Source: a virus
Length of the DNA: 44,242 nucleotides
Virus record (IMG/VR): IMGVR_UViG_3300045988_084446
Coordinates: 1 to 44,242 of that record
Strand: one strand, 5' to 3'
Shown here one piece after another: positions 12,397-33,424 of this stretch. The position numbers and the translations under genes are program-made. The notes beneath the pieces were generated by a model, which saw nothing but the letters and a program-made list of their open reading frames with translations, was not told the DNA's origin and made no database searches. Position 1 is the stretch's first letter, and every line of letters begins with the position of its first letter.

Positions 12397-15300
12397 ATGG
12401 ATCCGCAGAAAAGAGCAGAAATTGAGCAGATGATGCGCCGCGACGTGGCAAGCGGAAATATCGGCGTCAAGATTAAGATGCCCGGCGAGAACAACAATGA
12501 CGAACTGAACGATATCGTAAACTATGCGCCGACAAGTGAATACACGATTTATGACACGGGCAGACGCGACGACGCGGGCAATCCGATCATGAGCAGCGAC
12601 GTGATGGATTTGATGATGACAAAATCCTATGAGCCGCAGAAAGAATCGGATTGGTCTGTCTCTAATATCGCAGATGCGGTCTATACAAAGCTGCGGGACA
12701 ACTTCTATGATGGCAGTGTTCAGCCCGTCGATTTTGACAATCCATATTACACAAAAGACATGACTGCACCGCCGGAGCCGATTACAGGGAAAGACCTTAT
12801 CAAAGGGGCTATGCCCGAGAGTTTTCAGGCATCCAAACTCTATGCGGATTATTTCTACGGTGAGGACGAAAAACGCGAGCAGATCAAGAAAGCGCATGAC
12901 CTGACGGGGATTCGCGCGGAGACGATTGCCAATGACCCCGATGTATGGGAAAAGGTTATGAAGATTGTCCAGCGTGCAGAAAAACTCAAAAAACTTCCGG
13001 GCATGGTAGATGCGAACGGCGATCTCAATATGAGCCGCGTCTATGAGGCGATGCCGTATCTTCGGGAAATCGTCGAAAAGCGCGGCACGAACGAGGCTGT
13101 CATGATGCTCCAGAATGCCGAGGGACTGCAAACAGTCAATGATGCGTACAGCAATGAGTTTATGCGCTTTGCGGGAAGTGTTGCGACGGGCGTAGAACGT
13201 GGCTACTACAATATCCGTAAACAGTTGACCTATGCGAACGCAATGATCGGCAGACGTAAACTCACCGAAGATGAGCAGAATTGGATTACGGCGCTTGACA
13301 AGAAGAAGGAGGAATTGCCCGAATACTCCTATGGCGGTGTTGGGCAAGCAGTTGGTGCGATGATCGGCGGTGCCGCCGAGAATATCCCGATGATTGCCTC
13401 TGCGCAGGGGATTGGAGCGGTTGCAGGAGGTATCACTCTTGCCGTAACAAAGAACCCAGGTACGGCGGCAAATGTCGGAAGAGCTGCTGCTATTGCCGTT
13501 ATGGGGCTTGAGATCGGTGGCAGTCAGTATGAGGAGAATCTCAGCAAACTGGACGCAAAGGGACGCGCGATGTATACGCCGACAGAGGCGGCTGCGATTT
13601 CGGCGACACAGGGGCTTACCGAGGGTGTAATCGAGCAGCTTGCTTTGCAGAAGATTGCACGCACGATTTTTGGGCGGGGTGAGGCAAAGAGCCTGCGCGA
13701 CCTCTATGCAGGTGCAGGAGCAAAAGATTTGGCACTGGCCGCAGAAGGGGCAACTGCAAACGAAGCGGCGCGTGCACTCATCAAGGAACGGATTCTTGGT
13801 GCGGCAAAAGCGGGCGCAATTACGTTTAATACGGAGCTGCAGGAGGAGTTTGCCCAGCAGGTCTCGGATATGGTCATCGAGAACATGGCGCAGATGGCAC
13901 TCAAGGGGGACGATGCCGAGATTGCATCCGTCAGAGAAATCCTGCAGAAATCTACCACCGCCGCAATCGAAGCCGCGCCCTCTATCGCCGGATTCGGGCT
14001 TCTCGGCTTTGGCGGTCATGTGGGTGCCCATACGAATACGATGCTGCATGCTCGCTCTCACATGGAACAGCTCGTGAAGAATCGTCTCTATCGGAGCGTC
14101 AATGAGAATCAGCATCTCATGAATACTGTTGAGGCGGTAGGGAATAATCTGAAGAACGTACAGGAACTCCAAGGCAAAGCACCTGATCTTGTGAATGAGA
14201 TGCTTGATTCGCAGAACCGCCGCTATGGGATAGAGACAACGGCCGTAGATATTGTATCACTCAATCAGGAAGAGAGCGGCGCGGAGCTTGTGCAGGAGAT
14301 CGCCGCCGCAAATAATATCAGCGCGGAGGAACTGCAGGCGTGCGCGGACGGGACGGGGATGCTGCCCGTCAAAACCTCGACTCTCCAACAGATGACAACG
14401 CATCTGGATGAGGGCAAACGTAAGGCACTCTTTCAGAATATCACAAAGTCCTCTGATCTCTACACGGACAAGCAGGCACAACATGAGGCGAAGATCGTCA
14501 AGGAGATTCTAGGTGCATTCCGTGAGAAGACGGAAGAGGAGGTCGGCGATTCTGTTGACCGTTATGTTGAGAGCGCGTTTGCAGAACATGAGCATCGTGC
14601 GCTTGCTCGGGATATTTTGCTTGCAGACGTCAATCATCCTGCGGCAGAAATTAAGCGGCGTATGAACCGTCTGGATTCCGATCTCGCAGAACTGACAGCC
14701 GTACAGAGTGACGGTGGTGCGGAATCGGCGGAGTATCTTGCACATATCCAGCCCGAGATCGACAAGATCAATGCGCAGAAGGCGGCGCTTTCGACTGTTG
14801 AGGGCACAATAAAAGGCCTCCAACCCGGGGATGTTGTCGCAACGGCGGAACTGTCCCCTGAGGCAAGAGGCGTCTATCATGAGCTTGCGGGTCAGCTTGG
14901 TGATGCCAAGAGCAAGAAAGCCCGCACGGCTGCGCGTGCCTCTGCGCTTCTTACTGCGCGCTATGCTGAGCGTATGGCGAAAATTTACAGCGAGGTAAAG
15001 GGCGAGCCGTACACCGCCGCAGACTATATGCGCGAACATCTCCGTGTGGATGCGCGTGCGGATGACAAGAAAAGAGAGGCGGCGAAGAAAAAGGCAGAGG
15101 TCGTCAAGGATTTCATTGACACGCATTTCCCCGATGCCGCCGAACGCGAGATGGCAGTCATTGCAACGATGCAGGATGCCGTAAGCCCCGCGAAGGGATG
15201 GCGTAGGCTCTATAACGACTTTGTGGAAGATCGCGATGAACTTCTACGTCCTGCGCTGGATGCACTGGGGCGCGGGATGGGCAACGGTGTCGATATTGTT

Positions 15301-18300
15301 CCGATTGATGATGATGGACGCGGAATACGTGTGTCCAATAATGAACCCTGGTATCGATACTTTTACAAGGAGCACGGGCGACCGCCGCGCAAGGGGGAAC
15401 TCACCGACCTTGCCTATCGTCTCACCGTCGGTGATGCATCCGCACCGAAAATCGAAGGATGGGCGCCGGCATCGCAGGAAGATATAGACGCGATGGAGGC
15501 CGCAAAAGGTCAGCTTGACGAACTGAACGGCTACATCCATACCCTTGAAAATATCAAGGAACGCATGATGCAGATGGATACGGAAGCGTTGAATCAGGAT
15601 GAGGCGCAGACGGGAGTGTTCGGGGACAGGGAAAAAGCAATTGCTGTGCGTGAGATTCGTAATCTTGTTCCGCTGGAGGTTGTTCTAACGGGGAAACCTT
15701 TGGATAAGAAGGCGGCAGAAGCTGTTTTTTCGACCTTTGGCGAAGTAGAAAATCCGCGTTATGGAACGTATGCGACATTCCCGAAAAGTATGGTCGGCAA
15801 GATTATCAAGCATCGTGGTTTGGATGTATCTCAGATGCTTACTGATATTCCACGGCTGTTTTCTTCTTCTGTACTGGCCCTTGTTGAGCCGGAGTACAAA
15901 AAAGAAGGACATAAGGAACATCCTAATATACTTGCCTATCATCACTATGTCAATAAATTTACGGCGGATGGTACGACATACTATATACGTTTTTCGCTCA
16001 GAGAAGAGAAAACAAAGAACCGCGCAAAACCAAGCGCAAAACGCATTCTTCACTCGACGGGAATCAGTGATATTCAAATCTACGAGGAAAACAAAAAAGA
16101 CGTTTCCTCTCAACGTATCCGGGTTAGTGACCCGGGCGAAGAGAGCAAAACGTCTTTTGTTGATCATAGATTAGCAGAACTTTTCGATTCTGTCAAGGAT
16201 ATTCCTGCGGATGAGAATGCAGAAACCTTAGAGCAATCCGCATGGCACGGCACGCCGCATGATTTCCGCGAGTTCCTGCTTGAGATGATCGGCACGGGTG
16301 AGGGCGCACAGACACACGGTTGGGGACTGTATTTTGCGCAGAATCGGGAGGTGTCGGAGTGGTATAAAGATGTATTAGGGGAGGTTCAACAAGCGATTAT
16401 CCACGCCGGCGATAAAACGTATGCCGTGCACCCTGACGGTTATCGCGTAGAGAGGAATAGCGGCAAACCGCTGAAAGAAGGTTCTTCAATTGAAATCGCG
16501 CTTTCTGCGTTTGAGGACAGCAATGCCAATGTAAAGCAAGCAATCAGAGAGACTGAGGAATATCTTGAAAGAATGGAGCGTATAAAAGATACCGATGTGC
16601 GTGAAAAAAACAAGGACCTCATACGCGAAGCTCTGAAAATTTTGCAAGAAGAAGCAGATACATGGAATTTGGAAAAGAAAAAATCAAGTCTTTTTCATGT
16701 CGAAATCCCCGACAATGACGTTCTTCTCGACGAGCAGAAGCCGTTTGACGAGCAGCCGCAGTTCGTGCAGGAGAAGCTGAGAGAGGTGTTTGCCGATGAG
16801 GACAATAATAGAAAAGCTCGTTTTGCCAAAGAAATAAAAAGCTACGAGGCTAAAATCAAGGACTATGACCTTGTACTCAGTGAAAACGCAACGATTGAAG
16901 AGAGACAAGCGGCGGCAGAACGCCTTATACAAGGCGGGTCTGTGTATGGAGTCCCCTTAGAACGGGCTTTAGGCCCCGAGTTTAGACAAGATTTTCAGCT
17001 GGGGAGAGAGGATGTTGAGTACTATAAAGAGCAAACGCAAGAGGCTCTTGATAACTACCAAACGATCCTTAAGAGTTATAGGAATGGCAAGGCAATTTAT
17101 GAAAGTCTTTCATATTCGCTTGGCAGTCCCAAAGCAGCATCTCTCGCGTTGAACGAGGTCGGTATCAAGGGCATCACCTACGACGGACAGCGCGACGGTC
17201 GTTGCTTTGTCATCTTCGATGATCAGGCAATCCAAATCATCGAGAAGTATAACCAAGATCACGCGCACGGGGCGAAGGGGAATATCACGGCGACGCTTGG
17301 CGGTACGCAACGTCTGATTTCTCTCATGCAGGTGGCAGATCAGTCGACGTTTATGCACGAGATGGCGCATAACTTCCTGTTTGATTTGGAACATATCGCA
17401 GAAGTTGCACCAGAGAGCCGCTATGCCAAAGACCTTGCCGCAATCCAGAAATGGGCGACGTGGACGAAAGGTGCGGCGGACGAGTACGTGGGGACAGCTT
17501 CTGCGGCAGAGTTCCGCAACCGTGAGGAGAAAATTCTTGCAGCAGAGAAGAAGGGAGATGCAGCAGAGACAGAACGCCTCAAGCGTGAATGGATGCAGGA
17601 GCGTTTTGCCCGTGGGTTTGAGGAATACCTTCGCAGCGGGGAAGCACCTGCACAGGGATTACGTGCTGTGTTCCGTCGCTTCAAGGCATGGCTCACGCGG
17701 ATTTACAAGGATGTCACGGGTGCGGGTGTGCGCGCATCTGCTGAGGTCGAAGCAATCATGGCGCGTATGATTGCAACAGACGAGGAGATCGAAGCGGCGG
17801 CGGTCGTCAAACGTGCGCAGCGTCTCCAAAAGATTGATCCTGAACTTCTCAATGCGGATTCTGCCGAGACGATGATTCAGTGGGAGACAGAGGCCAAGGA
17901 GCGCGCAAAGGAAACGCTGCTCAAAGAGCTTATCCGTGAGATGCAAGGGCGCGACGTTGACGCACACATGGAGGAATACGAAGCACAGCTGAAAGCTGAG
18001 ATGCGGGAGAATCCCGTTTGGCAGGCGGAGGCGGTTGCGGAGACATTTGGCGTTGGTCAGGTCATCGCAAGCGGCTATTATCCTACGGTGGAGTCGTATG
18101 AAAAGGCACTCAAAGATGCCGGCGGCGGATTCGACGCAGCTTATAATCGTCAGATGCGCGAGGAGCGGGAACGCTACAAGACAGAAATGCCGAACGCAGA
18201 GGCGATTGCACAGCGAGCAGAAGAGGTGCTTGCATCACAGGAATACACCGCACGTCAGACAGCCCTTGAAGGAGAACTCCTGAACGAGTATATCAAGGCC

Positions 18301-21300
18301 TATGACAACGCCCCGCAGCGTCTCAAAGATGCGATGATCGGCGTTGCGCGTGCACTGGAACGTGAGGAGGATGCGCCGTTGGAAAAGGCGGTGACGGCTC
18401 TCAAATATGCGTTCCGCTGGCAGGAGAAACAGGCGCAGGAGATTGATGATTTGCGGGCGCTCCTCTCTTCCGCGAAAGAATCAGGAGAGGAAGATCGCAC
18501 AAAGATGCGTGAGAAGTTCGGGGAGGCGTTTAACCGACTCAAACTCTCGGCGGCGCAGAACCTCGAAGCCGTGCGCAGCCTCCGTGATTCGGCGGCGGGA
18601 AGAGTTGCTGCGATGCGTGCATATGCACAGCAGCACCTTGAGAACGCTCCAACCCACGAGGCGACGAATACGCGTCATTGGATGCGGCAGGTACAGAGCG
18701 CCGCAAAAGAGACAGAACGTCATCTCACGAATATGCTCCGCAAGAATAATGGAATTGAGAAGGAGGACACAGGCGACAAAGACCTTGCGGCGGCACGTAC
18801 GGCAAAGACCCGTCAGCTTGCAATGGAGGCAATGACGCATGAGAGCGTCAAACTGAAACGCGAGCTCGATCGTATGGTGAAATACTTTGCCCGCCGGGAG
18901 AAGAATCTTGCCAATGACAAGACGGGCAAGATTGACGGAAATCACCGCTATTTCATTCACCATTTACTCTATGTGTTTGGTCTTCGTCGCTCCGATGGTG
19001 TGCCTCTCATGGGAGAAGGTGCGCGTAGTTGGTCGGAATTGATGCAAGAGATCAAGGACTCCAACGATGGCTTTGATGGCGTGGATATTCCCGAATGGCT
19101 CACTTCTGCGGCAACGTCCCGCGATACGCAGCGAAAGTATACGGAACTCTCCATGCAGGAACTCCGTGATCTGCGTATGCTCGTTGAATATCTCTATGTG
19201 ACGGGGCGCAACAAGAACACGCTCCTCACATCAGGTGAGAACATCGATGAGGTCGCGGCTCGTATGTATCAGAACTATGAGGAGCATATCGGTGAGCAGG
19301 ACGGCGGAAAAGAAGCTCACACCTATATGGTGCAGCTTTTGAAGCCGGAAACAATGCTCAAGGTCATCGGTGGCAAGAGCGGTGCGATTGTAGACTATCT
19401 CTACAATACGCTCTTTGATGCACAGGAAAAAAAGACGGAGGCACTTGAGGAGAACGCAAAACGATTGGAAGTGATCATTGGACAATACTACACGCAGAAA
19501 GACAGGCGCAAAGCGTGGAGCAAGAAACTCGGGATAAATCTCACGGATGGCACAGAACTGACAAAGGAGAATGTGCTCTCTATGGCTCTCAACTGGGGCA
19601 ACGAGGGCAACCGTTCCCGCCTCGTCGCAGGTCTCTCGACGAAAACACCGTATATAGAGAAGGATGTCGAGGAGATTTTTGCAAAGACGATGACCAAGAA
19701 AGACTGGGCATTCGTGCAGGAGATATGGGATTATCTCAATGAGCACGGCGATGCGGTCAATGAGGTCGTCGAAAAGAGCGCCGGCACGCCGATGAAGCGT
19801 GTTGCACCGGATGAATTTACGATCGAGGCATCGACAGGAGAGTTGCTGACCATTCGCGGCGGGTACTATCCGATTCGGTATGACCCGAAACGTTCTGAGC
19901 GTGCAGCAGATCAGGAGCTTGCAACTGTCGCCGAATCGGTTGGTGGCGCTATGGCGTTTGGGTCTGGAATGGGCTCAACGAAGAACCGTGCAAACGGGGC
20001 TCCGCTGGGGCGGCCGCTTGACCTCTCTTTGGATGTCATGTATCGCCATATCGATCAGCAAATCCATATTGCCGCGATGCGCCTTGCTTGCCGTGATGTC
20101 TATAAGCTACTCAACCATTCGGCGGTTAAAGAACCGATCTTGCAGACGCTCGGAAAAGACGCATATGACAGTCTGAAACGATGGGTTGAAAATACATGGC
20201 AAGAGCCAATGAATAACAATCTCTACATTGAGACTAAAGCGGAGGAGTGGCGCGCGAACACGGTAACGGCAATCATGGCGTTTCGTGTGTCGACGGCACT
20301 CCTTAATGCGTCCAATATTATGCCGATGGCAGATCGACTCGGTACAGTCAATGCAGTTCAGGCAATGTTGCAGTACCTCCGGCACCCGCAGAGGATCCGT
20401 CAATTCGTACTCAATGATTCGGCGTTTATGCGGAACCGTGCTCATAATATGGATCGCGATCTGAATACCAAAGGAAAAGACATTTTCGGCGGAAAGAACT
20501 CCGTTCGGAAGTGTCTTATTAAGTATGGGACATGGCTCATGGAGGAGACAGACATGCTCTGCAGTGTGCCAACCTATTATTGGACATATCAGGGGCGGTA
20601 CAACAAGGAGGTAGCGGACGGGACAGATGAGATTATTGCCCGTGAGCGTGCGCACAGAGAAGCCCACGAGGCAGTACGTTCGATCTTTGGCTCTGCAGAT
20701 TCGATTGACCGATCTGCGGTACAGCGTTCACAGAGTGGGCTTGTCAAGGCATTTACGCCATTCTTCAGCTTCTTCAATGCACAGATGAATGCAGTGTGGG
20801 AGAAGTATTATGCAGGGCGTTATGACAAGCACAAGAGCAACTTTGTTGAGCGTTATTCCGGGTTTGTTCGTTCCTATCTTTTCCGTTTTGTCGCAATGGC
20901 TGCAATCGAAACGATGATTCGGCAAAGCCTTGAAGCTGTTTCGGCCGGAAGTGGTGATAAAAAAGATAAAGACGAATGGTATAAGAAATTTTTGAAGCAG
21001 TGGGCGGCAAATTCTCTCGGGAGCGTCGCAAGCGGATTCCCGGTGATCAATATGGTTGGCGAGATCGCACAAGGGATGATTACAGGCAAACTGCAGCAGG
21101 GGCGCAATAGTGGTGTTGTATTCGCTGCTGTTGGGCGACTTACCGACCCCATCCAGATGGCGCATTCTTTGCAAAGCGACAAGTCCAAGATTGATGCGAT
21201 TGATTTTGGACGCGCCCTGACAAAGGGAATCGCCGGGACGATCTATGCTGTTCCGGATACCTTGACCGATGGCTTCTGGAATACGGCACGCTTCATGACC

Positions 21301-21384
21301 GACAATTACCGTCTCAATAATCCAGATGATCTGCGTGAATTTATCGCAAAGACAATTCTGGATAAGAAACTCAAACAGAAATAG
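12397..21384 (+). CDS. Giant 2995-aa ejection/core 'polyvalent' protein (T7 gp16 position) with an H-Y-E-type ADP-ribosyltransferase motif and a zincin-like HExxH motif
   Basis: Uninterrupted 8988-nt ORF with RBS GGGAGG. A Gly/Ala-rich hydrophobic stretch (GGVGQAVGAMIGGAAENIPMIASAQGIGAVAGGITLAV) looks membrane-inserting. SAWHGTPHDF...GWGLYFA matches ART motifs 1 and 2 (PARP LWHGS / GIYFA; diphtheria toxin YHGT). FMHEMAHNF is a zincin HExxH. Confidence 0.6.
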   Translation: MDPQKRAEIEQMMRRDVASGNIGVKIKMPGENNNDELNDIVNYAPTSEYTIYDTGRRDDAGNPIMSSDVMDLMMTKSYEPQKESDWSVSNIADAVYTKLRDNFYDGSVQPVDFDNPYYTKDMTAPPEPITGKDLIKGAMPESFQASKLYADYFYGEDEKREQIKKAHDLTGIRAETIANDPDVWEKVMKIVQRAEKLKKLPGMVDANGDLNMSRVYEAMPYLREIVEKRGTNEAVMMLQNAEGLQTVNDAYSNEFMRFAGSVATGVERGYYNIRKQLTYANAMIGRRKLTEDEQNWITALDKKKEELPEYSYGGVGQAVGAMIGGAAENIPMIASAQGIGAVAGGITLAVTKNPGTAANVGRAAAIAVMGLEIGGSQYEENLSKLDAKGRAMYTPTEAAAISATQGLTEGVIEQLALQKIARTIFGRGEAKSLRDLYAGAGAKDLALAAEGATANEAARALIKERILGAAKAGAITFNTELQEEFAQQVSDMVIENMAQMALKGDDAEIASVREILQKSTTAAIEAAPSIAGFGLLGFGGHVGAHTNTMLHARSHMEQLVKNRLYRSVNENQHLMNTVEAVGNNLKNVQELQGKAPDLVNEMLDSQNRRYGIETTAVDIVSLNQEESGAELVQEIAAANNISAEELQACADGTGMLPVKTSTLQQMTTHLDEGKRKALFQNITKSSDLYTDKQAQHEAKIVKEILGAFREKTEEEVGDSVDRYVESAFAEHEHRALARDILLADVNHPAAEIKRRMNRLDSDLAELTAVQSDGGAESAEYLAHIQPEIDKINAQKAALSTVEGTIKGLQPGDVVATAELSPEARGVYHELAGQLGDAKSKKARTAARASALLTARYAERMAKIYSEVKGEPYTAADYMREHLRVDARADDKKREAAKKKAEVVKDFIDTHFPDAAEREMAVIATMQDAVSPAKGWRRLYNDFVEDRDELLRPALDALGRGMGNGVDIVPIDDDGRGIRVSNNEPWYRYFYKEHGRPPRKGELTDLAYRLTVGDASAPKIEGWAPASQEDIDAMEAAKGQLDELNGYIHTLENIKERMMQMDTEALNQDEAQTGVFGDREKAIAVREIRNLVPLEVVLTGKPLDKKAAEAVFSTFGEVENPRYGTYATFPKSMVGKIIKHRGLDVSQMLTDIPRLFSSSVLALVEPEYKKEGHKEHPNILAYHHYVNKFTADGTTYYIRFSLREEKTKNRAKPSAKRILHSTGISDIQIYEENKKDVSSQRIRVSDPGEESKTSFVDHRLAELFDSVKDIPADENAETLEQSAWHGTPHDFREFLLEMIGTGEGAQTHGWGLYFAQNREVSEWYKDVLGEVQQAIIHAGDKTYAVHPDGYRVERNSGKPLKEGSSIEIALSAFEDSNANVKQAIRETEEYLERMERIKDTDVREKNKDLIREALKILQEEADTWNLEKKKSSLFHVEIPDNDVLLDEQKPFDEQPQFVQEKLREVFADEDNNRKARFAKEIKSYEAKIKDYDLVLSENATIEERQAAAERLIQGGSVYGVPLERALGPEFRQDFQLGREDVEYYKEQTQEALDNYQTILKSYRNGKAIYESLSYSLGSPKAASLALNEVGIKGITYDGQRDGRCFVIFDDQAIQIIEKYNQDHAHGAKGNITATLGGTQRLISLMQVADQSTFMHEMAHNFLFDLEHIAEVAPESRYAKDLAAIQKWATWTKGAADEYVGTASAAEFRNREEKILAAEKKGDAAETERLKREWMQERFARGFEEYLRSGEAPAQGLRAVFRRFKAWLTRIYKDVTGAGVRASAEVEAIMARMIATDEEIEAAAVVKRAQRLQKIDPELLNADSAETMIQWETEAKERAKETLLKELIREMQGRDVDAHMEEYEAQLKAEMRENPVWQAEAVAETFGVGQVIASGYYPTVESYEKALKDAGGGFDAAYNRQMREERERYKTEMPNAEAIAQRAEEVLASQEYTARQTALEGELLNEYIKAYDNAPQRLKDAMIGVARALEREEDAPLEKAVTALKYAFRWQEKQAQEIDDLRALLSSAKESGEEDRTKMREKFGEAFNRLKLSAAQNLEAVRSLRDSAAGRVAAMRAYAQQHLENAPTHEATNTRHWMRQVQSAAKETERHLTNMLRKNNGIEKEDTGDKDLAAARTAKTRQLAMEAMTHESVKLKRELDRMVKYFARREKNLANDKTGKIDGNHRYFIHHLLYVFGLRRSDGVPLMGEGARSWSELMQEIKDSNDGFDGVDIPEWLTSAATSRDTQRKYTELSMQELRDLRMLVEYLYVTGRNKNTLLTSGENIDEVAARMYQNYEEHIGEQDGGKEAHTYMVQLLKPETMLKVIGGKSGAIVDYLYNTLFDAQEKKTEALEENAKRLEVIIGQYYTQKDRRKAWSKKLGINLTDGTELTKENVLSMALNWGNEGNRSRLVAGLSTKTPYIEKDVEEIFAKTMTKKDWAFVQEIWDYLNEHGDAVNEVVEKSAGTPMKRVAPDEFTIEASTGELLTIRGGYYPIRYDPKRSERAADQELATVAESVGGAMAFGSGMGSTKNRANGAPLGRPLDLSLDVMYRHIDQQIHIAAMRLACRDVYKLLNHSAVKEPILQTLGKDAYDSLKRWVENTWQEPMNNNLYIETKAEEWRANTVTAIMAFRVSTALLNASNIMPMADRLGTVNAVQAMLQYLRHPQRIRQFVLNDSAFMRNRAHNMDRDLNTKGKDIFGGKNSVRKCLIKYGTWLMEETDMLCSVPTYYWTYQGRYNKEVADGTDEIIARERAHREAHEAVRSIFGSADSIDRSAVQRSQSGLVKAFTPFFSFFNAQMNAVWEKYYAGRYDKHKSNFVERYSGFVRSYLFRFVAMAAIETMIRQSLEAVSAGSGDKKDKDEWYKKFLKQWAANSLGSVASGFPVINMVGEIAQGMITGKLQQGRNSGVVFAAVGRLTDPIQMAHSLQSDKSKIDAIDFGRALTKGIAGTIYAVPDTLTDGFWNTARFMTDNYRLNNPDDLREFIAKTILDKKLKQK

Positions 21385-26961: not shown

Positions 26962-28065
26962 TTAAGCCTCAATCGGTACTGCTATCAGTTTATTTCTGAA
27001 TATGATAACTCGATCAAGGAGCCTCTCCCAAAATAATTTTCTTTCTGCTTTCTCCATATCGGCATAGCCGGTGTCTGCGGTATCAATGCTCGCCAATAAT
27101 GCCGCCTCTATGCGATCCTCTCGCCAATACACGTTGTATGGGCAGTTACTGTGCGTGTATGATCGACACACATAATAAATGCGCACACATGTCTTTTGAC
27201 GATGGTATCTCGGCGTGAGTCCACGCCCGCATTTAGGGCATTTTAATAGACGACTGAAAAGATAGATGTTATCTGTTCGCGGGTGTTGAGTACGTCCCTC
27301 GAATGCTTTTTGTACGGTTGCGAACAAGTCATCATCGATCAAGGCTGGACAGAAATTTTTGACGCCGTAATATTCGCCGATATAAATTTTGTTTTGTAGA
27401 GCGCGACCAACGGCTCCTTCTGTTTTGCCGTAGTGATATTTTCCCAACAGCATCCGATACGTTGCAAGCACAGAATGACCTTCCGCAAAATACGCAAACA
27501 TATCTTGTACCATTGGCGCCTTTTTCCTGTCGATTACAATATGCTTGTTCTTGCTGATTTTGTATCCATCAGGTATGTGGCCAGTGATAACCTTTCCTGA
27601 ACGTAAAAGTCCCTGCTGCACATATTTGACGCGGTCACTTGTCTGATCGCTCTCGTGCTGTGCAAGTGTCAGTTTGAGGTTGAGCATCAACCTTCCGCTG
27701 CTAGTTGTTGTATTGTACAGAGATTCCTGTGAGCACTCCCAGTCTACGCTATGCGCATCAAGGATATCCTGCACAATATAATAGTCCCGAACGTTTCGGA
27801 ACCATCGATCAAGGCACTTAAATATGATGACATCAACGTCTCCTGTTTGTACATCCTCTAAGAGCCGTTGCAGACCTTTGCGAAGGTGAGGGGATTTGCG
27901 GGCGCTGACACCCTCATCGGCGTAAACCCCCACTATTTTGTAAGCGTGTTGTTTGGCGTATTGGTATAAATCATGCTCCTGCTCGGCGAGGGAGTATCCA
28001 TGCCGAGCCTGCTCCTCTGTTGACACGCGAATATAAAGCGCCGCGCGCTTCTTCGATCGGTTCAT
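26962..28065 (-). CDS. Serine recombinase (resolvase/invertase catalytic domain plus recombinase and zinc-ribbon domains; small serine-integrase type)
   Basis: N-terminus MNRSKKRAALYIRVSTEEQ carries the catalytic Ser motif. C-terminal Cys cluster CPKCGRG...C...C. RBS AAGGAG. Confidence 0.8.
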   Translation of the reverse strand: MNRSKKRAALYIRVSTEEQARHGYSLAEQEHDLYQYAKQHAYKIVGVYADEGVSARKSPHLRKGLQRLLEDVQTGDVDVIIFKCLDRWFRNVRDYYIVQDILDAHSVDWECSQESLYNTTTSSGRLMLNLKLTLAQHESDQTSDRVKYVQQGLLRSGKVITGHIPDGYKISKNKHIVIDRKKAPMVQDMFAYFAEGHSVLATYRMLLGKYHYGKTEGAVGRALQNKIYIGEYYGVKNFCPALIDDDLFATVQKAFEGRTQHPRTDNIYLFSRLLKCPKCGRGLTPRYHRQKTCVRIYYVCRSYTHSNCPYNVYWREDRIEAALLASIDTADTGYADMEKAERKLFWERLLDRVIIFRNKLIAVPIEA

Positions 28066-28078
28066 CTAAAGATTCTCC

Positions 28079-28344
28079 TTGTCTACAAATTGCCTACAAA
28101 ATACCATGATTCGCCTTTCTTACTCTTATTTTTTGTTTCGTACAAGAATATGTTTTATTCTTGTGAATCCCTGTCATTGTAAGGGATGTAGTAATGTGAT
28201 ATAATCTTTTATCCTGTGCTATTATATATCGGTGATCTTATATCACAAAATACACAGCACTGCCACATAGCTTTTTATATCAATGGTTTAGCGCCTATTC
28301 AGAGTGACTTGTCTACATCTTGTCTACATAATCACTTGCCTACA
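28079..28344. repeat. Candidate attP region: five direct TTGYCTACA arm-type repeats bracketing an AT-rich segment with inverted repeats
   Basis: TTGTCTACA at 28079, TTGCCTACA at 28090, TTGTCTACA at 28309 and 28320, TTGCCTACA at 28336, all in the same orientation with about 11-bp phasing. 10-bp IR TGTGATATAA / TTATATCACA at 28196 and 28239. Abuts the 3' end of the integrase gene. Confidence 0.45.
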
Positions 28345-29498
28345 ATCCTTTCAAAAATCTGCGCGGTCTCTTGCTTCATTTCCTCCGTATCATGCGTATA
28401 CAGATTGAGTGTAATCGTTGCATCAGCATGTCCCAGACGTGCTGCAACGTCAACAGGCTTTGCCCCTGCCTCAATGAGGCGGGTGGCGTGCGTATGCCGG
28501 AAGCTGTGTGCATTCAGATTCAGACGCTGCAGAAACGCCTCAAAACGTGCATGACTGTAAGGAGTGCCGTTGGACCGAATACAAAGGAGAGGGCGTCGAA
28601 CAAGAAATTTCGGAGGTGGTATTTTCTTCGGCAGAATAACGAGTGCGCGACCATCATGCATATCCTCGTAGATTACTTGATATGCCTCTCCTAAGCGCAT
28701 CTCCTCTTTTGCTTGTGATGCTTTTAGTGCACGCAGATAGGAGATAAGCACGGCATCCGCGTAGAATGTTCGCGTACTGGTCGTGGTCTTCGGCGTTTCG
28801 AAGTACCCGCGATATACCCGCTGTCTTGCAACCGATATTTCTCCTGTGTTAAGGTCAATATCATCCCATGTGAGCCCCAAAACCTCACTGATTCTAAGCC
28901 CCGTGTGATAGAGCAGTTTGACTGCGGGATAGTATACCCCGTCTGTTGGGATGGCTGCAAATTGCTCGGGCGTGATGACCACGCGGGGGATGATCTTTTG
29001 AGGAGCACAACGGGGGATAGATATGCCTGTGACAGGGTTCGCAGAGATCAATTCTGCCGGATATACGGCATATTTCATAGCAATAGATAACACCGTTTTT
29101 GCCTGTGCTATTGTGGTTCGCGCAAGACCTTCTTTTGCAATTTTTTTCATCCATGAATCTACATCTCGCGGGCGTAGTTCCTGAACATGGATACTGCCGA
29201 GATACGGGACGATGCGTGCAGCGATTATGCTTGAATAATTCTTATGCGTTGATCGCTTCAAAGTTGGCCGCACGACGTTCTCAAGCCACGAGGCAAGGTA
29301 GTCCCGCAGCGTCACTTTCTCCGACGTGACACCGATATTCCCGCTCTTCCAGTCGGCATAGGCTTTTACGCCTTCGTCAAATGCTTCATCCTCGGTGGCA
29401 AAGCCTCCTTTCTCTTTCATGCGGCGTGGGTTCTTCGAGATGTCGAAGCTGTACGAAAAAGTTTTCCCACGCTTTCTGATTCTGATTTTGTTGGACAT
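28332..29498 (-). CDS. int: Tyrosine site-specific integrase
   Basis: 388 aa. N-terminal SAM-like/arm-binding region and a C-terminal catalytic domain with R...HTHATR...LGH...Y (…YTHDTEEMK). RBS AAGGAGG. Confidence 0.85.
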   Translation of the reverse strand: MSNKIRIRKRGKTFSYSFDISKNPRRMKEKGGFATEDEAFDEGVKAYADWKSGNIGVTSEKVTLRDYLASWLENVVRPTLKRSTHKNYSSIIAARIVPYLGSIHVQELRPRDVDSWMKKIAKEGLARTTIAQAKTVLSIAMKYAVYPAELISANPVTGISIPRCAPQKIIPRVVITPEQFAAIPTDGVYYPAVKLLYHTGLRISEVLGLTWDDIDLNTGEISVARQRVYRGYFETPKTTTSTRTFYADAVLISYLRALKASQAKEEMRLGEAYQVIYEDMHDGRALVILPKKIPPPKFLVRRPLLCIRSNGTPYSHARFEAFLQRLNLNAHSFRHTHATRLIEAGAKPVDVAARLGHADATITLNLYTHDTEEMKQETAQIFERIVGK

Positions 29499-29520
29499 AA
29501 ATAAAACCTCCTTGAAATGG

Positions 29521-29575
29521 GAGGCGAATCATGGTAGAATTTTATTGCAACTTGGCATGATTCGCGTCATGTCTG
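29521..29575. repeat. Motif site B: GAGGCGAATCATGGTAGA plus an inverted partner (GCGAATCATG - 22 nt - CATGATTCGC), upstream of int
   Basis: Exact 18-bp match to site C (32866-32883). 15-bp match in inverted orientation to site A (28102-28115). Confidence 0.5.
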
Positions 29576-29709
29576 CCGCTCTCTCTGTTGGCGCAGAGGG
29601 GGCGGTTTTTATTCTCGTTATTTTTCTTTTTACAAAAATATGCGCTTTTACTTGTGATTTTTATAGAAAAGTGTCAAATTACTTTCAACACTATGTTTGA
29701 AAGTGGATG

Positions 29710-29740
29710 AATGCAATGTGAGGATTCTTCACATTGCATT
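29710..29740. promoter_or_regulatory. Perfect 12-bp inverted repeat AATGCAATGTGA - 7 nt - TCACATTGCATT, downstream of the minus-strand cargo operon. Terminator or operator
   Basis: Seen directly in the sequence. Lies 20 nt past the stop of the Cys-peptide gene. Confidence 0.4.
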
Positions 29741-29759
29741 TTCCGTTAAATGTAAATTG

Positions 29760-30035
29760 CTAACATCCGCAAGTGGGGCTAAAGGTTCCGTCGCAGCATT
29801 TTGTCCGTCCGTTTTCGCATCCACAGACACCTTTATGGTGACTGCAACAGCCTCTCCTTAAGTATATCATACGGTGATTGTATGTGCCGACAATGGAGCC
29901 GATCTCCGGCGGGGGAACCTCAACATTGAGTGTAAAATTTGCAATAGATCCTTCTTCTGCCTGTGGCGTTGCTGCAGATACCGTGGGGGATAGCAACATC
30001 GCAAGTATTGCTGTGAGTAAAGTGATGCGTTTCAT
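29760..30035 (-). CDS. Secreted cysteine-rich peptide precursor (signal peptide plus 8-Cys C-terminal module)
   Basis: MKRITLLTAILAMLLSPTVSA|ATP... ends GCCSHHKGVCGCENGRTKCCDGTFSPTCGC. Translationally coupled to the upstream rhodanese gene by an ATGA overlap. Confidence 0.55.
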   Translation of the reverse strand: MKRITLLTAILAMLLSPTVSAATPQAEEGSIANFTLNVEVPPPEIGSIVGTYNHRMIYLRRGCCSHHKGVCGCENGRTKCCDGTFSPTCGC

Positions 30036-30472
30036 TGATCTTTCTCTCCCTTCATATCTACCATCGGCAGCCGGCCTTTTTCAATATGCTTTGCAGCGTC
30101 TTTTAATACCTTGACGTTTATAAAGCCGTTTTGAAATAGAATCTGTGCTGCACGAATAGAATAACCATCATCGGGGCATGAACAATAAATCATGTAAGCC
30201 TTTGACTTATCTTGCTGGGCAATAAAATCATCAAGGGGTTTCTTTTTGTAGGGGTTAATCCATATTTCCCCGGGAACCTCTTTTTTGCTCCTCTCCCTAC
30301 TTTGTTCTGATCGGACATCGATTACCTGTACGGCTTCTGGAGCTTTTAAGTATTCCTTTATCGTTATGAACGAATACTCGACTTGCTCCTTTTGTTGTGA
30401 CTGCTCTGCTGATATAACGCTGGCGTTCAGCAAAACGAGCAACAACATGATGGGGATGCGTAATAGTTTCAT
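30032..30472 (-). CDS. Secreted rhodanese-domain (sulfurtransferase-like) protein
   Basis: Signal peptide MKLLRIPIMLLLVLLNASVISA. VIDVRSEQ...GEIWINP...IYCSCPDDGYSIRAAQILFQNGF.NVKVL matches the rhodanese fold with a Cys in the active-site loop. RBS GGGAGG. Confidence 0.6.
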   Translation of the reverse strand: MKLLRIPIMLLLVLLNASVISAEQSQQKEQVEYSFITIKEYLKAPEAVQVIDVRSEQSRERSKKEVPGEIWINPYKKKPLDDFIAQQDKSKAYMIYCSCPDDGYSIRAAQILFQNGFINVKVLKDAAKHIEKGRLPMVDMKGEKDQ

Positions 30473-30510
30473 TTTCTTCCTCCCTTAAATAATGATGTAG
30501 AAGTCTGACA

Positions 30511-30912
30511 TCATTTTTGTACCTCATTCAGTTCATCGCTGTTGTTCCACCCGGGACCTCTCTGTTTCAGCCCTATATCACCTGCTTTTATATCCTGCCT
30601 CATTTGATTTATAATTGCTTCCCGTTGTTCCTCTGGAGACAGGGACGGATCTGCCATTGGTTCTGGACGAGAATGTGTTCCAACTTGATTGTCAGCTTTA
30701 GGTTTTGGCGATTCTTTTGTAGTATAGAACCCAACAAAAGATAGTATGCAAATCAGGGAAATAATGCAGATTCGTTTGAGGTAAGGTCGATTTTGTATAA
30801 ATCTTATCAACTGTAACAGATATGGTTTGACGGCTCGAAAAACCGATTTAAGTACAAGGAATATGACCGCAAGTAAAGAGCAGATTGCTATGATAAGAAA
30901 TACCTCGTTCAT
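30511..30912 (-). CDS. Small membrane protein (two TM) with a charged C-terminal domain
   Basis: TM1 VFLIIAICSLLAVIFLVL and TM2 ICIISLICILSFVGFY. RBS GGAGGG. Confidence 0.5.
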   Translation of the reverse strand: MNEVFLIIAICSLLAVIFLVLKSVFRAVKPYLLQLIRFIQNRPYLKRICIISLICILSFVGFYTTKESPKPKADNQVGTHSRPEPMADPSLSPEEQREAIINQMRQDIKAGDIGLKQRGPGWNNSDELNEVQK

Positions 30913-30945
30913 GATGTTGCCCTCCGTTTAGTCTTCCTGTGTATC

Positions 30946-31056
30946 TCAATAGAAGTCAGCGTTCTTTGTTGGTATGGTGAAGTTACTATCTTTTCTCCGC
31001 ACTTTAAGCAACAAAGCATCATTAGGGAGTTCATAACCGCATTTTCGACAAAACAT
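30946..31056 (-). CDS. Hypothetical 36-aa protein with a CxxC zinc-ribbon-like N-terminus
   Basis: AGGAGG 6 nt upstream of the ATG. Translation MFCRKCGYELPNDALLLKVRRKDSNFTIPTKNADFY. Below the length cutoff of the ORF track. Confidence 0.3.
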   Translation of the reverse strand: MFCRKCGYELPNDALLLKVRRKDSNFTIPTKNADFY

Positions 31057-31065
31057 AATAACCTC

Positions 31066-31521
31066 CTATTCATAGACACAAGCTGCGCATTCTAACTCCT
31101 TTAGCAGAGAGGCGGTATCGGCAAGAGATAATAATTTTTCATCGCGGATGCTGTCGATCATCCGGACGTTGTTGCGCAAACAGGTATGCGCGAGAAGGAG
31201 AAAGGCGAACTTGTTCGCCGCAAGCTCCTTTTCGTCATGCTGCGCTGCAGATAATCGATCTACGTGAACAAATGAATCTAAACTATGATGGAGAATGATA
31301 TGCCCTAACTCGTGAGCAAGGGCAACATTACGTGCATCCTCTGAGAGAGTTGTCTTAATGGAGACACTTTGCATCCGCCCAAGGCGAACGAAGAACGCAT
31401 CTGGCAAGAAGATAATGTTGTGTGGGTGTATTTTGATGCCCATCGCTCGGAGAATTGTGGATGGGCTGTTGCTCTCGTGAGCTCGAATAACATCAATGAC
31501 GGTCGGAAGTAGTCTCCGCAT
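31066..31521 (-). CDS. immA: ImmA/IrrE-family metallopeptidase (anti-repressor protease)
   Basis: HEXXH in LAHELGHIILHH. Overlaps the 3' end of the upstream XRE repressor gene, as in immR-immA pairs. Confidence 0.75.
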   Translation of the reverse strand: MRRLLPTVIDVIRAHESNSPSTILRAMGIKIHPHNIIFLPDAFFVRLGRMQSVSIKTTLSEDARNVALAHELGHIILHHSLDSFVHVDRLSAAQHDEKELAANKFAFLLLAHTCLRNNVRMIDSIRDEKLLSLADTASLLKELECAACVYE

Positions 31522-31954
31522 CAGATGATTCCTCCTTGATTAACACCTTTACAAACTCCCGCAAGACCTGTTTTTGCTGTTCCGTTAGTGGTTTGTCGCT
31601 ATAAGTAAGATACCCACCACGTTCCAACAAGGCGTCAAGATCATTTTCTTTTTTTGTGCGTCGTGTATGTTTCCCGTAGGGGGCGATTTCTTCGGAAACC
31701 GTTCCTTGTATATAATTCTGGTCCCCCGTTGTCAATGAAGATGGATTTTCCCATCCCATAATATAGGCAGGGGTAACGTGATACACTTCGGCAAGCAGTT
31801 CTATCTTATCCACGGGGATGTTTGTTACAATATCATTTTCATATTTATATAGTGTTTGCTTTGAAACAAGCACGCGTTGACCGACTTCATCTTGAGTCAA
31901 CCCTCGATCTAAACGAAGGGCTTTAAGCCGCGCACCAATAGAACCATCTGGCAT
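31493..31954 (-). CDS. immR: XRE-family HTH repressor (ImmR/CI-like)
   Basis: HTH in LRLDRGLTQDEVGQRVLVSKQTLYKYEN. Divergent from the cro-like gene. Start ATG 31954, 7 nt after GGAGGGGG; a TTG at 31960 is an alternative. Confidence 0.75.
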   Translation of the reverse strand: MPDGSIGARLKALRLDRGLTQDEVGQRVLVSKQTLYKYENDIVTNIPVDKIELLAEVYHVTPAYIMGWENPSSLTTGDQNYIQGTVSEEIAPYGKHTRRTKKENDLDALLERGGYLTYSDKPLTEQQKQVLREFVKVLIKEESSDAETTSDRH

Positions 31955-31992
31955 ATACAATCCCCCTCCTTCTTAAATGATGTGTCATTTAT

Positions 31993-32020
31993 ATATTAAC
32001 ATAAACGGTATAAAAAGCAA
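31993..32020 (-). promoter_or_regulatory. Putative immR promoter (minus strand: TTGCTT - 16 nt - TAATAT)
   Basis: Reverse-complement reading of the immR/cro intergenic region. Confidence 0.3.
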
Positions 32021-32027
32021 CAAAAAA

Positions 32028-32072
32028 GTTACTTTTGAAGAATAAAATATCTTGACAGGTTACTTTCTTAGA
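32028..32072. promoter_or_regulatory. Operator-like repeats GTTACTTT(C)TTAGA overlapping PR. A third copy lies at 32325-32338, after cro
   Basis: GTTACTTTTGAAG at 32028, GTTACTTTCTTAGA at 32059-32072, GTTACTTTCTAAGA at 32325-32338. Confidence 0.4.
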
Positions 32073-32080
32073 GTTATACT
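32052..32080 (+). promoter_or_regulatory. Early rightward promoter PR (TTGACA - 17 nt - TATACT)
   Basis: Near-consensus boxes at 32052-32057 and 32075-32080, about 45 nt upstream of the cro-like start. Confidence 0.6.
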
Positions 32081-32124
32081 AATGGTATCCTAAAAAGCTA
32101 CCAAAGAGAAAGGGGGATGTGAGA

Positions 32125-32334
32125 ATGATAAAAACAGATGAGATTGTCGGTTTGATGGCGAAGCATCAAATCTCACGAAAAGAAATGGCGAAGAGGCTGG
32201 GGATAACACCTAAAACCTTTTCGCTGAAGCTAAAAAAAGGGCATTTTGGTTCTGACGAAATTGAAACCATGATTGAGGAACTTAAAATTGAAGATCCTAT
32301 GTCCATTTTTTTTGCCAAGAAAGTAGCTTTATAA
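32125..32334 (+). CDS. Cro-like HTH regulator
   Basis: 69 aa. HTH in ISRKEMAKRLGITPKTFSLKLKKG. Divergent from immR. GGGGG 8 nt upstream of the ATG. Confidence 0.6.
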   Translation: MIKTDEIVGLMAKHQISRKEMAKRLGITPKTFSLKLKKGHFGSDEIETMIEELKIEDPMSIFFAKKVAL

Positions 32335-32386
32335 GTTACTTTCTAAGAAAAAACACCTTTCAACAAGAGGCAAAGGAGGTGAGGGG

Positions 32387-32701
32387 ATGAAGTATTCTAC
32401 ACCGAAGACAAGCGCCGAATGCAATAAGTATTTGAAGGCACGCATCGGTGTAACGTGGGAGGAGAATGAACCGCAGGAAAAGACACTATCGGACATCAAG
32501 ATGTTGCTTGTGGAATACAGGCTTTGGCAGAAGGATGAGGATCATTTCCTACGGCGGACAATCTACACCATGCAAGCGAATCGGCGTTTGGATTGGAAGG
32601 TGTTACTTCTCGTTTGCAGCGCAGGGGGATTTGTCGGAACGGCTGCCTGTATTCTGCTCGCATATCTTTTCGGAGTGATCTTGATGGAAGTTCATGTGTA
32701 G
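32387..32701 (+). CDS. Hypothetical protein with a C-terminal TM anchor
   Basis: RBS AAAGGAGGTGAGGGG. C-terminus VLLLVCSAGGFVGTAACILLAYLFGVIL. Confidence 0.4.
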   Translation: MKYSTPKTSAECNKYLKARIGVTWEENEPQEKTLSDIKMLLVEYRLWQKDEDHFLRRTIYTMQANRRLDWKVLLLVCSAGGFVGTAACILLAYLFGVILMEVHV

Positions 32702-32714
32702 AGGAGGTGAGGAG

Positions 32715-32840
32715 ATGAAGCGACTGCTTGAACGTCTGGATGATTTCGCTTTTCGTAATCCGGGAGCGATGCTTGTGTTTAATGTTTCTTGCATAATGAT
32801 TGCCATTGTATGCACATTGATCAACGTACTGCGCTGATGA
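32715..32840 (+). CDS. Hypothetical 41-aa membrane peptide
   Basis: RBS GAGGAGGTGAGGAG. Hydrophobic C-terminal half. Confidence 0.3.
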
Positions 32841-32847
32841 TGGCGGG

Positions 32848-32904
32848 TCACGCCCCGCCCTATTACGAGGCGAATCATGGTAGATAGCAAAGATGGCGGG
32901 GCGT
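32848..32904. repeat. Motif site C: GAGGCGAATCATGGTAGA (32866-32883) inside a 35-nt loop closed by an 11-bp GC-rich inverted repeat (CACGCCCCGCC / GGCGGGGCGTG)
   Basis: Seen directly. The third copy of the 15-18 bp motif. Includes a GAGG-N6-ATG translation-initiation-like element. Confidence 0.5.
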
Positions 32905-33031
32905 GGATGCCGATAGGAGGTGAAGTATGTGCGGGGTGTCATAGACTGGGACTTCGTTATAACGATCGTCTGCCTGACAGCGCCGGTTATGCTGTTCTCC
33001 ATACTGGCGGTCTATTTCTGGAGGTGAGGAT

Positions 33032-33424
33032 ATGCCAAGGAAAGCGGCTGACGCAGTAGCCGTGGACATCGTGAAAGTGCTCACGGATGCAGTCGAGCGA
33101 ATCGCTGCAGAGAAGGTAGCGGCGCAGTCAGAGGCGGCAACGCAACGCATCATTGAGCATCTGCCAGAGGTTGTCTATCTGCCTCCGAAACCTGCGGAGG
33201 TGCCGCAAGAACGTCTGCTGAGTGTGGGGGAAGTTGCTGAGATCCTCGGCTGCTCGACGGCGACTGTTGCCAAGCGGTTCGAGAGCGGTGATCTGGCATT
33301 TGTGCTAGAGCGCGGCTCTGAGAATCGAAAGGTTCCGTATAGCTGGGTGATTGAGTACATTCACAGTCTCCCACGCTATACGGGGAAACTGAAAGAGAGA
33401 AAGGAGGTTAAAGCTCATGCATGA
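33032..33424 (+). CDS. Excisionase-family HTH DNA-binding protein (putative Xis / early regulator)
   Basis: LLSVGEVAEILGCSTATVAKRFESGDLAFVLERGSENRKVPYSWVIEYI matches the MerR/excisionase-type HTH pattern. RBS GGAGGTGAGG. Confidence 0.5.
   Translation: MPRKAADAVAVDIVKVLTDAVERIAAEKVAAQSEAATQRIIEHLPEVVYLPPKPAEVPQERLLSVGEVAEILGCSTATVAKRFESGDLAFVLERGSENRKVPYSWVIEYIHSLPRYTGKLKERKEVKAHA

Follow-up and report, generated by a model that had tools for sequence, protein, structure and literature searches.

A 15-nucleotide word common to the attP arm, the integrase leader and an xis-leader hairpin loop in Selenomonas/Centipeda prophages, and its possible action as RNA on int

The 44,242-nucleotide stretch of viral DNA considered here (IMG/VR record IMGVR_UViG_3300045988_084446, positions 1 to 44,242; referred to in full as the window) is a complete temperate-phage-like contig in which one exact 15-mer, AGGCGAATCATGGTA, occurs three times when exact matches are counted on both strands. 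The copies lie in the phage attachment site (attP), in the leader of the tyrosine integrase gene (int), and in a hairpin loop upstream of a gene resembling an excisionase gene (xis). This word is not a recombination site. It is read here as the regulatory word of the integration/excision module in a family of Selenomonas/Centipeda prophages, acting as RNA on int; this reading leans on predicted folds and is put forward tentatively, as a serious possibility that falls a little short of being probable. The three copies and the genes beside them are as follows.

28102-28116, minus strand: site A, exact copy of the 15-mer
29522-29536, plus strand: site B, exact copy of the 15-mer
32868-32882, plus strand: site C, exact copy of the 15-mer, in a hairpin loop
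26962-28065, minus strand: serine recombinase gene, 367 aa, with Resolvase, Recombinase and Zn-ribbon domains
28332-29498, minus strand: tyrosine integrase gene, 388 aa
33032-33424, plus strand: Xis-like gene, 130 aa, with an HTH_17 domain; phrog_66 'excisionase and transcriptional regulator'

Sites B and C have an 18-mer in common, GAGGCGAATCATGGTAGA (29521-29538 and 32867-32884), and a fourth, partial and inverted copy of 10 nt, CATGATTCGC, is found at 29557-29566, where it forms a 10-bp inverted repeat with 29524-33. Site A is separated from the ATG of the serine recombinase gene (28065) by 36 nt, and the 18-mer at B from the integrase ATG (29498) by 22 nt. A first-pass annotation of the window had given these coordinates and distances to within one or two bases, except that its site A (28102-28115) is one base short. 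It also had the anatomy right: an attP rich in arm repeats around A, a palindrome at B ahead of int, and a hairpin whose loop holds C before the xis-like gene. The word itself is asymmetric and without dyad symmetry, CATG being its sole palindromic part.

By our own arithmetic, further exact copies of a given 15-mer are expected by chance at 2 x 44242 / 4^15 = 8e-5. A shuffle test that allowed up to three mismatches is a weak one, with 4 copies found against 1.43 expected and 6 of 100 shuffles reaching 4. What bears out the earlier claim that the three exact copies are real and not due to chance is their conservation among relatives. An exact-match scan of IMG/VR returned 93 stretches, about 60 of them relatives, and in these relatives the word occurs in just three contexts, which match A, B and C. 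Retrieval bias was removed by the use of flank anchors, namely the C 5′ flank, the integrase start and the arm repeats in IMG/VR, and the integrase start also in metagenomes. The distinct related sites comprise 19 of type A, about 60 of type B and about 50 of type C (~130 in total), on contigs of Selenomonas/Centipeda prophages. Across them the word changes from A1 to G at two A sites, from G2 to A at one C site (L060), and in one decayed B module (L287), in which the -10 element of the promoter described below is destroyed too and the partial copy is left without compensation. The bases flanking the word vary freely across relatives, Int identity among word-carrying phages is 63-99% (63-72% in most), and Xis identity is 48-97%. 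Because flanks, Int and Xis diverge while the word stays, 13-15 contiguous positions are under strong purifying selection in all three places, and the repeat is not a product of chance.

The same figures bear on the idea that the copies are a relic of duplication, descended from one unit of ~35 nt (the word plus arm-like sequence) and kept by hitch-hiking. Residual similarity in the flanks of A, B and C (GTAG..GCAA..) fits such an origin, but the flanks have diverged freely while 13-15 bases remain invariant in three contexts among phages with Int 63-72% identical, which argues for selection on the word itself and makes a mere relic very unlikely.

The reading of the word as RNA begins with the leader of int, for which the following features are needed.

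29512-29540, plus strand: sigma-A type promoter TTGAAA-17-TAGAAT with a TG extension, pointing away from int
29547-29612, plus strand: predicted antisense small RNA (sRNA) of ~65 nt, with a putative start and a terminator at 29575-29606 followed by a T run
29557-29566, minus strand: Y, the partial motif copy, which pairs with Z (defined below) in a predicted 10-bp leader hairpin, HP1
29506-29525, minus strand: predicted hairpin sequestering the Shine-Dalgarno (SD) sequence of int, with the anti-SD (G)CCUCC (29525/29524-29520) paired to the SD GGAGG(U) (29511-29506)

Site B belongs to a conserved module of ~130 nt between the int start and a plus-strand terminator; past that terminator, the contigs have unrelated sequences. 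On the plus strand, the word at B forms the spacer and the first two bases of the -10 element of the antisense promoter. The B-type relatives feature TTGAAA, TTGCAA, TTGATA or TTTACA as the -35 element and TGgTAGAAT, TAATAT or TAGTAT as the -10 element, and none of them has lost the -35, the 17-nt spacing or the extended -10, despite indels toward the int SD. The promoter is followed by ~14 variable nt, the conserved GGGCATGATTCGCGTCATGTCTGCC, and then the terminator, whose stem shows three compensatory pairs across relatives. The predicted sRNA consists of a small hairpin and the terminator (z = -5.5), and its 5′ hairpin, GGCAUGAU-UCGC-GUCAUGUC, contains the 10-nt anti-motif CAUGAUUCGC (29557-29566). 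A conserved promoter and an intrinsic terminator thus lie opposite a recombinase leader, as would be expected of a cis-antisense RNA gene. The ATG of the word at B is upstream of the predicted start of the plus-strand RNA.

The int leader, read on the minus strand, runs from Y (GCGAAUCAUG) through a variable loop to Z (UACCAUGAUUCGCCU), directly after which CC completes CCUCC. Z is the complement of the word, that is, site B on the minus strand and the 'anti-motif' of the int leader, and the anti-SD overlaps the 5′ end of this complement. The SD helix is extended by flanks that match within each lineage (CCUCCUUG/CAAGGAGG, CCUCCUA/UAGGAGG), and the changes seen in the int SD itself are wobble-compatible (GGGAGG, GGGGG). 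The leader folds much better than its shuffles (z = -5.3) and, in keeping with an anti-antisense arrangement, the predicted fold has the int SD occluded by an upstream anti-SD.

In the favoured reading, the int transcript would start upstream of Z, and its leader would carry Z fused to the anti-SD CCUCC, which would pair with the int SD. The antisense promoter would produce the terminated sRNA of ~65 nt, antisense to Y and to the upstream leader. By capturing Y, the sRNA would release Z to fold onto the SD and AUG, and int would be OFF, as in the lysogen. The sense word would instead pair with Z and part of the anti-SD (15-18 bp), freeing the ribosome site and turning int ON. Site C would supply the word in trans from a hairpin loop, and only when the early lytic operon is transcribed; since C lies directly upstream of xis in that operon, Int and Xis would then be made at the same time, ready for excision. 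Between site A and int lies the att core, so that A would share a DNA molecule with int, and potentially a transcript, only in the unintegrated phage. Where the serine recombinase gene is present, A would also form part of the recombinase leader. The sequence data show the copies, their strict conservation and contexts, the promoter and terminator signals and the predicted folds; from these we infer the existence of the RNAs, their pairing, the start of the int transcript upstream of Z and the ON/OFF direction, the last of these from the folds.

The predicted folds behave in the manner that this scheme supposes. With Y blocked, Z pairs with the SD and AUG (GCCUCC:GGAGGU plus CAUGA:UUAUG) at -11.3 kcal/mol, and with Z blocked the SD is open. 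Both C and A complement Z plus 3-5 nt of the anti-SD, and cofolding with either opens the SD hairpin. The leader and C are predicted to form an 18-bp duplex with a change in free energy (ddG) of -6.6 kcal/mol in which the SD hairpin is dissolved, and the leader and A a 15-bp duplex that extends to 29 bp (ddG -18.9 kcal/mol).

Site C and its surroundings include two further features of the early operon.

32842-32911, plus strand: predicted site C hairpin of the early (lytic) operon
32052-32080, plus strand: near-consensus early promoter-like site TTGACA-17-TATACT (11/12 matches), which would transcribe the cro-like gene, site C and xis

The hairpin comprises an outer 4-bp stem (32842-45 / 32908-11), a main stem of 11 Watson-Crick pairs and one G-U (32848-59 / 32895-906), and a 35-nt loop (32860-94), and a Xis homolog is found 30-170 nt downstream of every C-type site. 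The word at C is always in a ~33-40-nt loop closed by a 9-13-bp GC-rich helix, a fold adopted by 28/28 variants, and its mean predicted unpaired probability in the loop is 0.64. In the main class of relatives, 99% of stem cells pair, as opposed to 41-55% with slid partners, and one stem position runs C-G / U-G / U-A. A second class of contigs sets another 5′ arm, CGCCYCGCCAT, in another register against the same 3′ arm, while in L003 and L100 both stem arms are changed. Furthermore, the outer 5′ sequence stays the same against two alternative 3′ flanks, GUGGAUGCC and UUUCCUCAU, both of which are complementary to it. This indicates that selection acts on pairing and not on sequence, and therefore on a folded single strand, most simply the early mRNA.

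Several other identities of the sites were considered and set aside. Site C does not profile as an intrinsic terminator, as half of its variants are without a U tract, and neither C nor A profiles as a promoter, given the lack of a conserved -35 and a poor -10. The ATG of the word is not the start of a conserved small open reading frame (ORF), since the frame stops after 5-13 codons in many variants (5 in many C variants). An earlier suggestion of a cis-acting RNA or a translational role is the one closest to the anatomy described here, but not through the GAGG-N6-ATG element on which it was based, from whose ATG no conserved ORF departs.

Separately, a 17-mer at 32832-32848, GCTGATGATGGCAGGTC, runs from the end of a 40-aa gene into the C hairpin and is also seen at loci L129-L183. 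Of the 86 IMG/VR stretches that contain it, ~50 continue into wholly unrelated sequence and genes, and it looks like a conserved module junction or linker common to many phage contigs.

The attachment site around A is defined by the following features.

28078-28101, minus strand: distal arm-type Int repeats, TTGTAGGCAATTTGTAGACAAG, next to A in all A-type relatives
28231-28248: approximate att core or crossover region, GTGATATAAGATCACC on the minus strand, from the comparison of the window with L077
28308-28347, minus strand: int-proximal arm-type repeats, three copies of TGTAGRCAAG, after or overlapping the int stop codon
28221-28248, minus strand: promoter-like TTGTGA-16-TATAAT, overlapping the palindromic att core and reading toward A and the serine recombinase

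Site A occupies the arm of attP that is distal to int. A distance of ~125 nt separates it from the att core, and the arm-type repeats (TTGTAGGCAAATTGTAGACAA, TTGTAGGCAA) begin 2-4 nt after the word. With respect to genes, site A falls within the 5′ untranslated region (UTR) of the serine recombinase and, on the other side of the core, downstream of int. The relative L077 matches the window exactly once GTGATATAAGATCACC is reached, with no similarity ahead of it, and the end of this identity places the att core at ~28231-28248. Judged from this comparison of sequences, L077 represents the end of a prophage and the window has the attP form. In other groups of relatives the core differs but is equally far from site A. 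Past site A and the arm repeats, most A relatives continue into a terminator and the end of the late genes, and the recombinase gene follows site A in only four (L071, L074, L077 and L192) of ~20 A-type relatives. The serine recombinase gene is thus optional cargo beside attP, and by its distribution among contigs the word goes with attP and int and not with the recombinase. An upstream ORF of 13 codons begins at the ATG inside motif A, and its TAG stop abuts the recombinase ATG.

The arrangement of the three copies had given rise to the proposal that they are crossover sites, A and B being inverted repeats at which the serine recombinase would flip int, and B and C direct repeats for deletion. 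The layout agrees with this proposal in that A and B are inverted around int, B and C are direct repeats, and the recombinase gene adjoins A. However, the recombinase is missing from most relatives that have all the site types, wherever A shares a contig with B or C their relative orientation is that of the window, no hybrid flanks of two classes occur among ~130 distinct sites, and the word has no dyad symmetry. A deletion between B and C would moreover remove the repressor module. Co-conservation of the recombinase, recombinant junctions and a dyad crossover site, as in systems of the Hin/Gin/Cin type, are all missing from this comparison. In two metagenome contigs, L214 and L215, similarity ends within the B word, after AGGCGAAT and AGGCGAATC; the break in L214 is an IS3-like insertion, and that in L215 a single unexplained junction into unrelated sequence. 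Given no hybrids, constant orientation, a patchy recombinase and no dyad symmetry, the inversion and the deletion are both unsupported, and site-specific recombination at the word is extremely improbable.

Modules of similar layout are found before more distant integrases. L104, from a Lachnospiraceae metagenome-assembled genome, encodes an Int that is 34% identical and has the same order of antisense promoter, hairpin and terminator in unrelated sequence. Its own 16-17-mer, TTTCGCAGGTGGAATG (1745-1761, 3326-3342), forms the antisense-promoter spacer before int, and the 16-mer recurs once in the 5′ UTR of the early operon, ~30 nt after a PR-like consensus promoter (E = 4.5e-4 within the locus). 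This second copy is oriented so as to complement the int leader, and the complementary leader segment includes the anti-SD. When arm 1 of the L104 leader is blocked in folding, arm 2 moves onto the SD and AUG. By analogy, L104 supports the RNA logic as an independent analogue. The 16-mer has single, chance-level matches only in IMG/VR, leaving no relatives in which to check for a third copy in the attP arm. L102 and L202 (Int 51% identical; Selenomonas sp. F0473) have the layout of arm 1, arm 2 and anti-SD opposite an antisense promoter and terminator before int. Taken together, the layouts of L104, L102 and L202 suggest a widespread, unannotated class of anti-int sRNAs. A broader proposal is that the int leader, in the manner of a riboswitch, reads two phage states through one 15-nt word, a constitutive sRNA acting as a lock in the lysogen that A would open in cis (in the circular, unintegrated form, as a sensor of topology comparable to sib but with a positive effect on the 5′ leader) or C in trans, and that this logic arose again with another word in a Lachnospiraceae prophage; stated in full, it is rather doubtful.

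The word may, alternatively, be a double-stranded operator of one protein, either the Xis-like HTH_17 protein, Int or a host factor. In such a scheme, A would serve the excisive/integrative intasome, B would repress the antisense-sRNA promoter and/or int, and C would mediate autoregulation of xis. The position of A fits this, being 2-4 nt from the arm-type repeats, on their core-proximal side, and ~125 nt from the core. In lambda, the Xis sites adjoin P2, and the placement of site A resembles that. Additionally, B fills the spacer between the -35 and -10 elements of a strong promoter, C is always just upstream of a xis homolog, the 130-aa Xis-like protein matches a family annotated as both excisionase and transcriptional regulator (phrog_66), degenerate arm-like GTAG..GCAA follows the word at B and C also, and dual-function excisionases provide a precedent.

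However, an operator leaves the conserved C hairpin with its changing arms without a reason. Each locus has a single asymmetric 15-bp site, with no further copies (≤3 mismatches) near A or C, whereas known recombination directionality factors (RDFs) use tandem arrays. Of the features of an RDF site, adjacency to attP and its arm repeats is thus present, while tandem boxes and co-variation with the recognition helix are not. The invariance of all 13-15 positions is unusual for a protein site, and the second copy in L104 is in a 5′ UTR without an adjacent xis. The predicted Xis recognition helix also differs among phages with an identical word (TATVAKRF, PRTVQLRM, VDTAKKRM, KDKVHRLM, PRAAQQLM), and because it differs so greatly while the word stays identical, Xis is unlikely to be its reader. 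The co-variation of motif and protein that the first-pass annotation proposed to look for is not seen for Xis or the recombinase among the relatives compared, the Xis helix being variable against an invariant word and the recombinase mostly absent. That the sites are operators of one regulator thus keeps some standing as a minority possibility, one we judge somewhat unlikely, with Xis a poor candidate for the regulator.

As for other known DNA sites, the word is by eye a poor match to the LexA/Cheo box, cre and the IHF consensus. Nor does it appear to be the CI/Cro operator, a role that seems to fall to the AAGTTACTTT repeats at 32026-32353. In the Xis-like protein (33032-33424) and its homologs, the wing, RKVPYSWVVEYI, and the N-terminal helical region are conserved, and the recognition helix is hypervariable among close phages.

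A different use of RNA pairing would make the antisense sRNA itself the regulator of other targets. Through CAUGAUUCGC, it would pair with word positions 3-12 at C, in the xis leader, and at A, in the recombinase leader or int 3′ UTR, so that xis and the recombinase are repressed along with int in the lysogen, or C acts as a sponge that titrates the sRNA on induction. The complementarity is perfect over 10 nt, and the loop of the sRNA, UUCG, has the YUNR form and is presented by a conserved hairpin; this form is common in antisense recognition loops. C shows the word in a loop, and cofolding of the sRNA with A gives a ddG of -11.8 kcal/mol. With C, however, the ddG is -0.6 kcal/mol, essentially no net gain. 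Moreover, the sRNA seed is mostly buried in its own stem, and such pairing explains 10 of the 15 invariant positions only. This makes trans targets of the sRNA improbable.

Several observations weigh against the favoured reading, in which the word acts as RNA on the int leader. Every RNA and start site in it is predicted. HP1 (Y:Z) and the core SD helix never vary and so show no covariation, all pairs of the leader being invariant in RNAalifold; as the word-containing helices never vary, covariation cannot decide between the RNA and DNA readings. At C, the stem changes of the main class are all one-sided with respect to the commonest pair and their covariation score is not significant (46/500 shuffles reach it), and, at 35 nt, the loop would be unusually large for one used in antisense recognition. 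The G2 to A variant of C in L060 gives an A-C mismatch with the int leader and not a wobble pair. A weak -10-like TAnAnT just upstream of Z on the minus strand may serve int, and the model fails if int transcription starts inside or downstream of Z. Furthermore, the RNA model needs no fixed placement of A beside the Int arm-type repeats, and the constant 2-4 nt between them is as for an RDF site. Degenerate arm-like GTAG..GCAA also flanks B and C, a hint of common ancestry or of a composite DNA element. Finally, trans copies are not universal, as L102 and L202 are without extra copies of their spacers within 10 kb.

The arrangement shares parts with several known systems. As with lambda sib, site A is an element beyond the att core that is joined to int only in unintegrated DNA. 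However, sib is a local 3′ hairpin that is cut by RNase III and lowers Int, and the RNA fold around A is no better than that of shuffles (z = -0.73), so that a local hairpin of the sib type is not found there. Instead, the 3′ element would complement a 5′ leader ~1.4 kb away, a second copy would act in trans, and activation is predicted. The antisense sRNA resembles IS10 RNA-OUT/RNA-IN and other cis-antisense RNAs in being a short terminated hairpin RNA from a strong promoter in the leader, opposite a recombinase or transposase gene. Unlike these, the predicted sRNA misses the SD and start codon and would act indirectly, by stealing an arm of the leader hairpin. In DsrA-rpoS and RNAIII-hla, a trans RNA likewise pairs with the strand that occludes the SD and opens the ribosome-binding site, whereas here the activator would be a loop in a polycistronic phage mRNA (C) or a distal or neighbouring part of the transcript (A). 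P2 Cox, 186 Apl, HP1 Cox and Pf XisF (PMC7379572) offer the parallel of one recognition sequence in attP and at lysis-lysogeny or int regulatory regions. These proteins bind arrays of repeated boxes, however, in contrast to the single sites described here, one of them in an RNA loop and none with co-variation of the Xis helix. The combination of one word common to an attP arm, an int leader with its antisense promoter, and an xis-leader loop turned up neither in Rfam nor in the literature searched.

The wider organization of the window is that of a temperate phage, as given below.

Up to ~26 kb, plus strand: structural genes
Ending at 31960, minus strand: lysogeny block of the serine recombinase, the tyrosine integrase, three small cargo genes, an ImmA-like peptidase and an XRE repressor
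Plus strand: early operon of a cro-like gene, two small genes, site C, a 32-aa ORF and the xis-like gene
32929-33027, plus strand: the small hydrophobic 32-aa ORF with a GTG start, between C and xis, present in some relatives and not in others

Relatives of the integrase in genomes are from Selenomonas and Centipeda (e.g., S. infelix ATCC 43532, 72% identity), so the host belongs to the oral Negativicutes. No GenBank phage matched 26900-33100 in a Megablast search. In Rfam, the whole window has no match at gathering score, and 27900-33100 has only chance-level matches (E > 1) at E ≤ 5.

Within the lysogeny block, 29760-30472 holds two secreted-looking cargo genes, which encode a Cys-rich 91-aa protein with a signal peptide and a rhodanese-like 146-aa protein, and the gene content of this slot differs between relatives. 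Directly after the 91-aa gene, at 29710-29740, is a nearly perfect 15-bp hairpin, AATGCAATGTGAGGA / TCTTCACATTGCATT, which may be its terminator. Just downstream of this hairpin, on the minus strand at ~29696-29668, is a candidate int promoter, TTGAAA-17-TATAAA. Direct and inverted repeats of the AAGTTACTTTC type, or AAGTTACTTT, at 32026-32353 surround the divergent repressor/cro promoters and also follow the cro-like gene, and they are probably the CI/Cro operators. The structural region includes a single ORF of 2995 aa (12397-21384).

The timing of Int and Xis in temperate phages outside lambda and P2 is largely unknown, especially in those of Firmicutes and Negativicutes of the human mouth and gut. 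If the favoured reading is true, a leader, an antisense sRNA and two copies of the word, as decoy or activator, would couple integrase translation to lytic transcription and to the state of integration. Even if the word is a protein operator, it defines the regulatory core (attP arm, int and xis) shared by a widespread family of Selenomonas prophages, and it points to an unannotated, predicted sRNA gene beside the integrase, in a module that recurs in distant integrase lineages.

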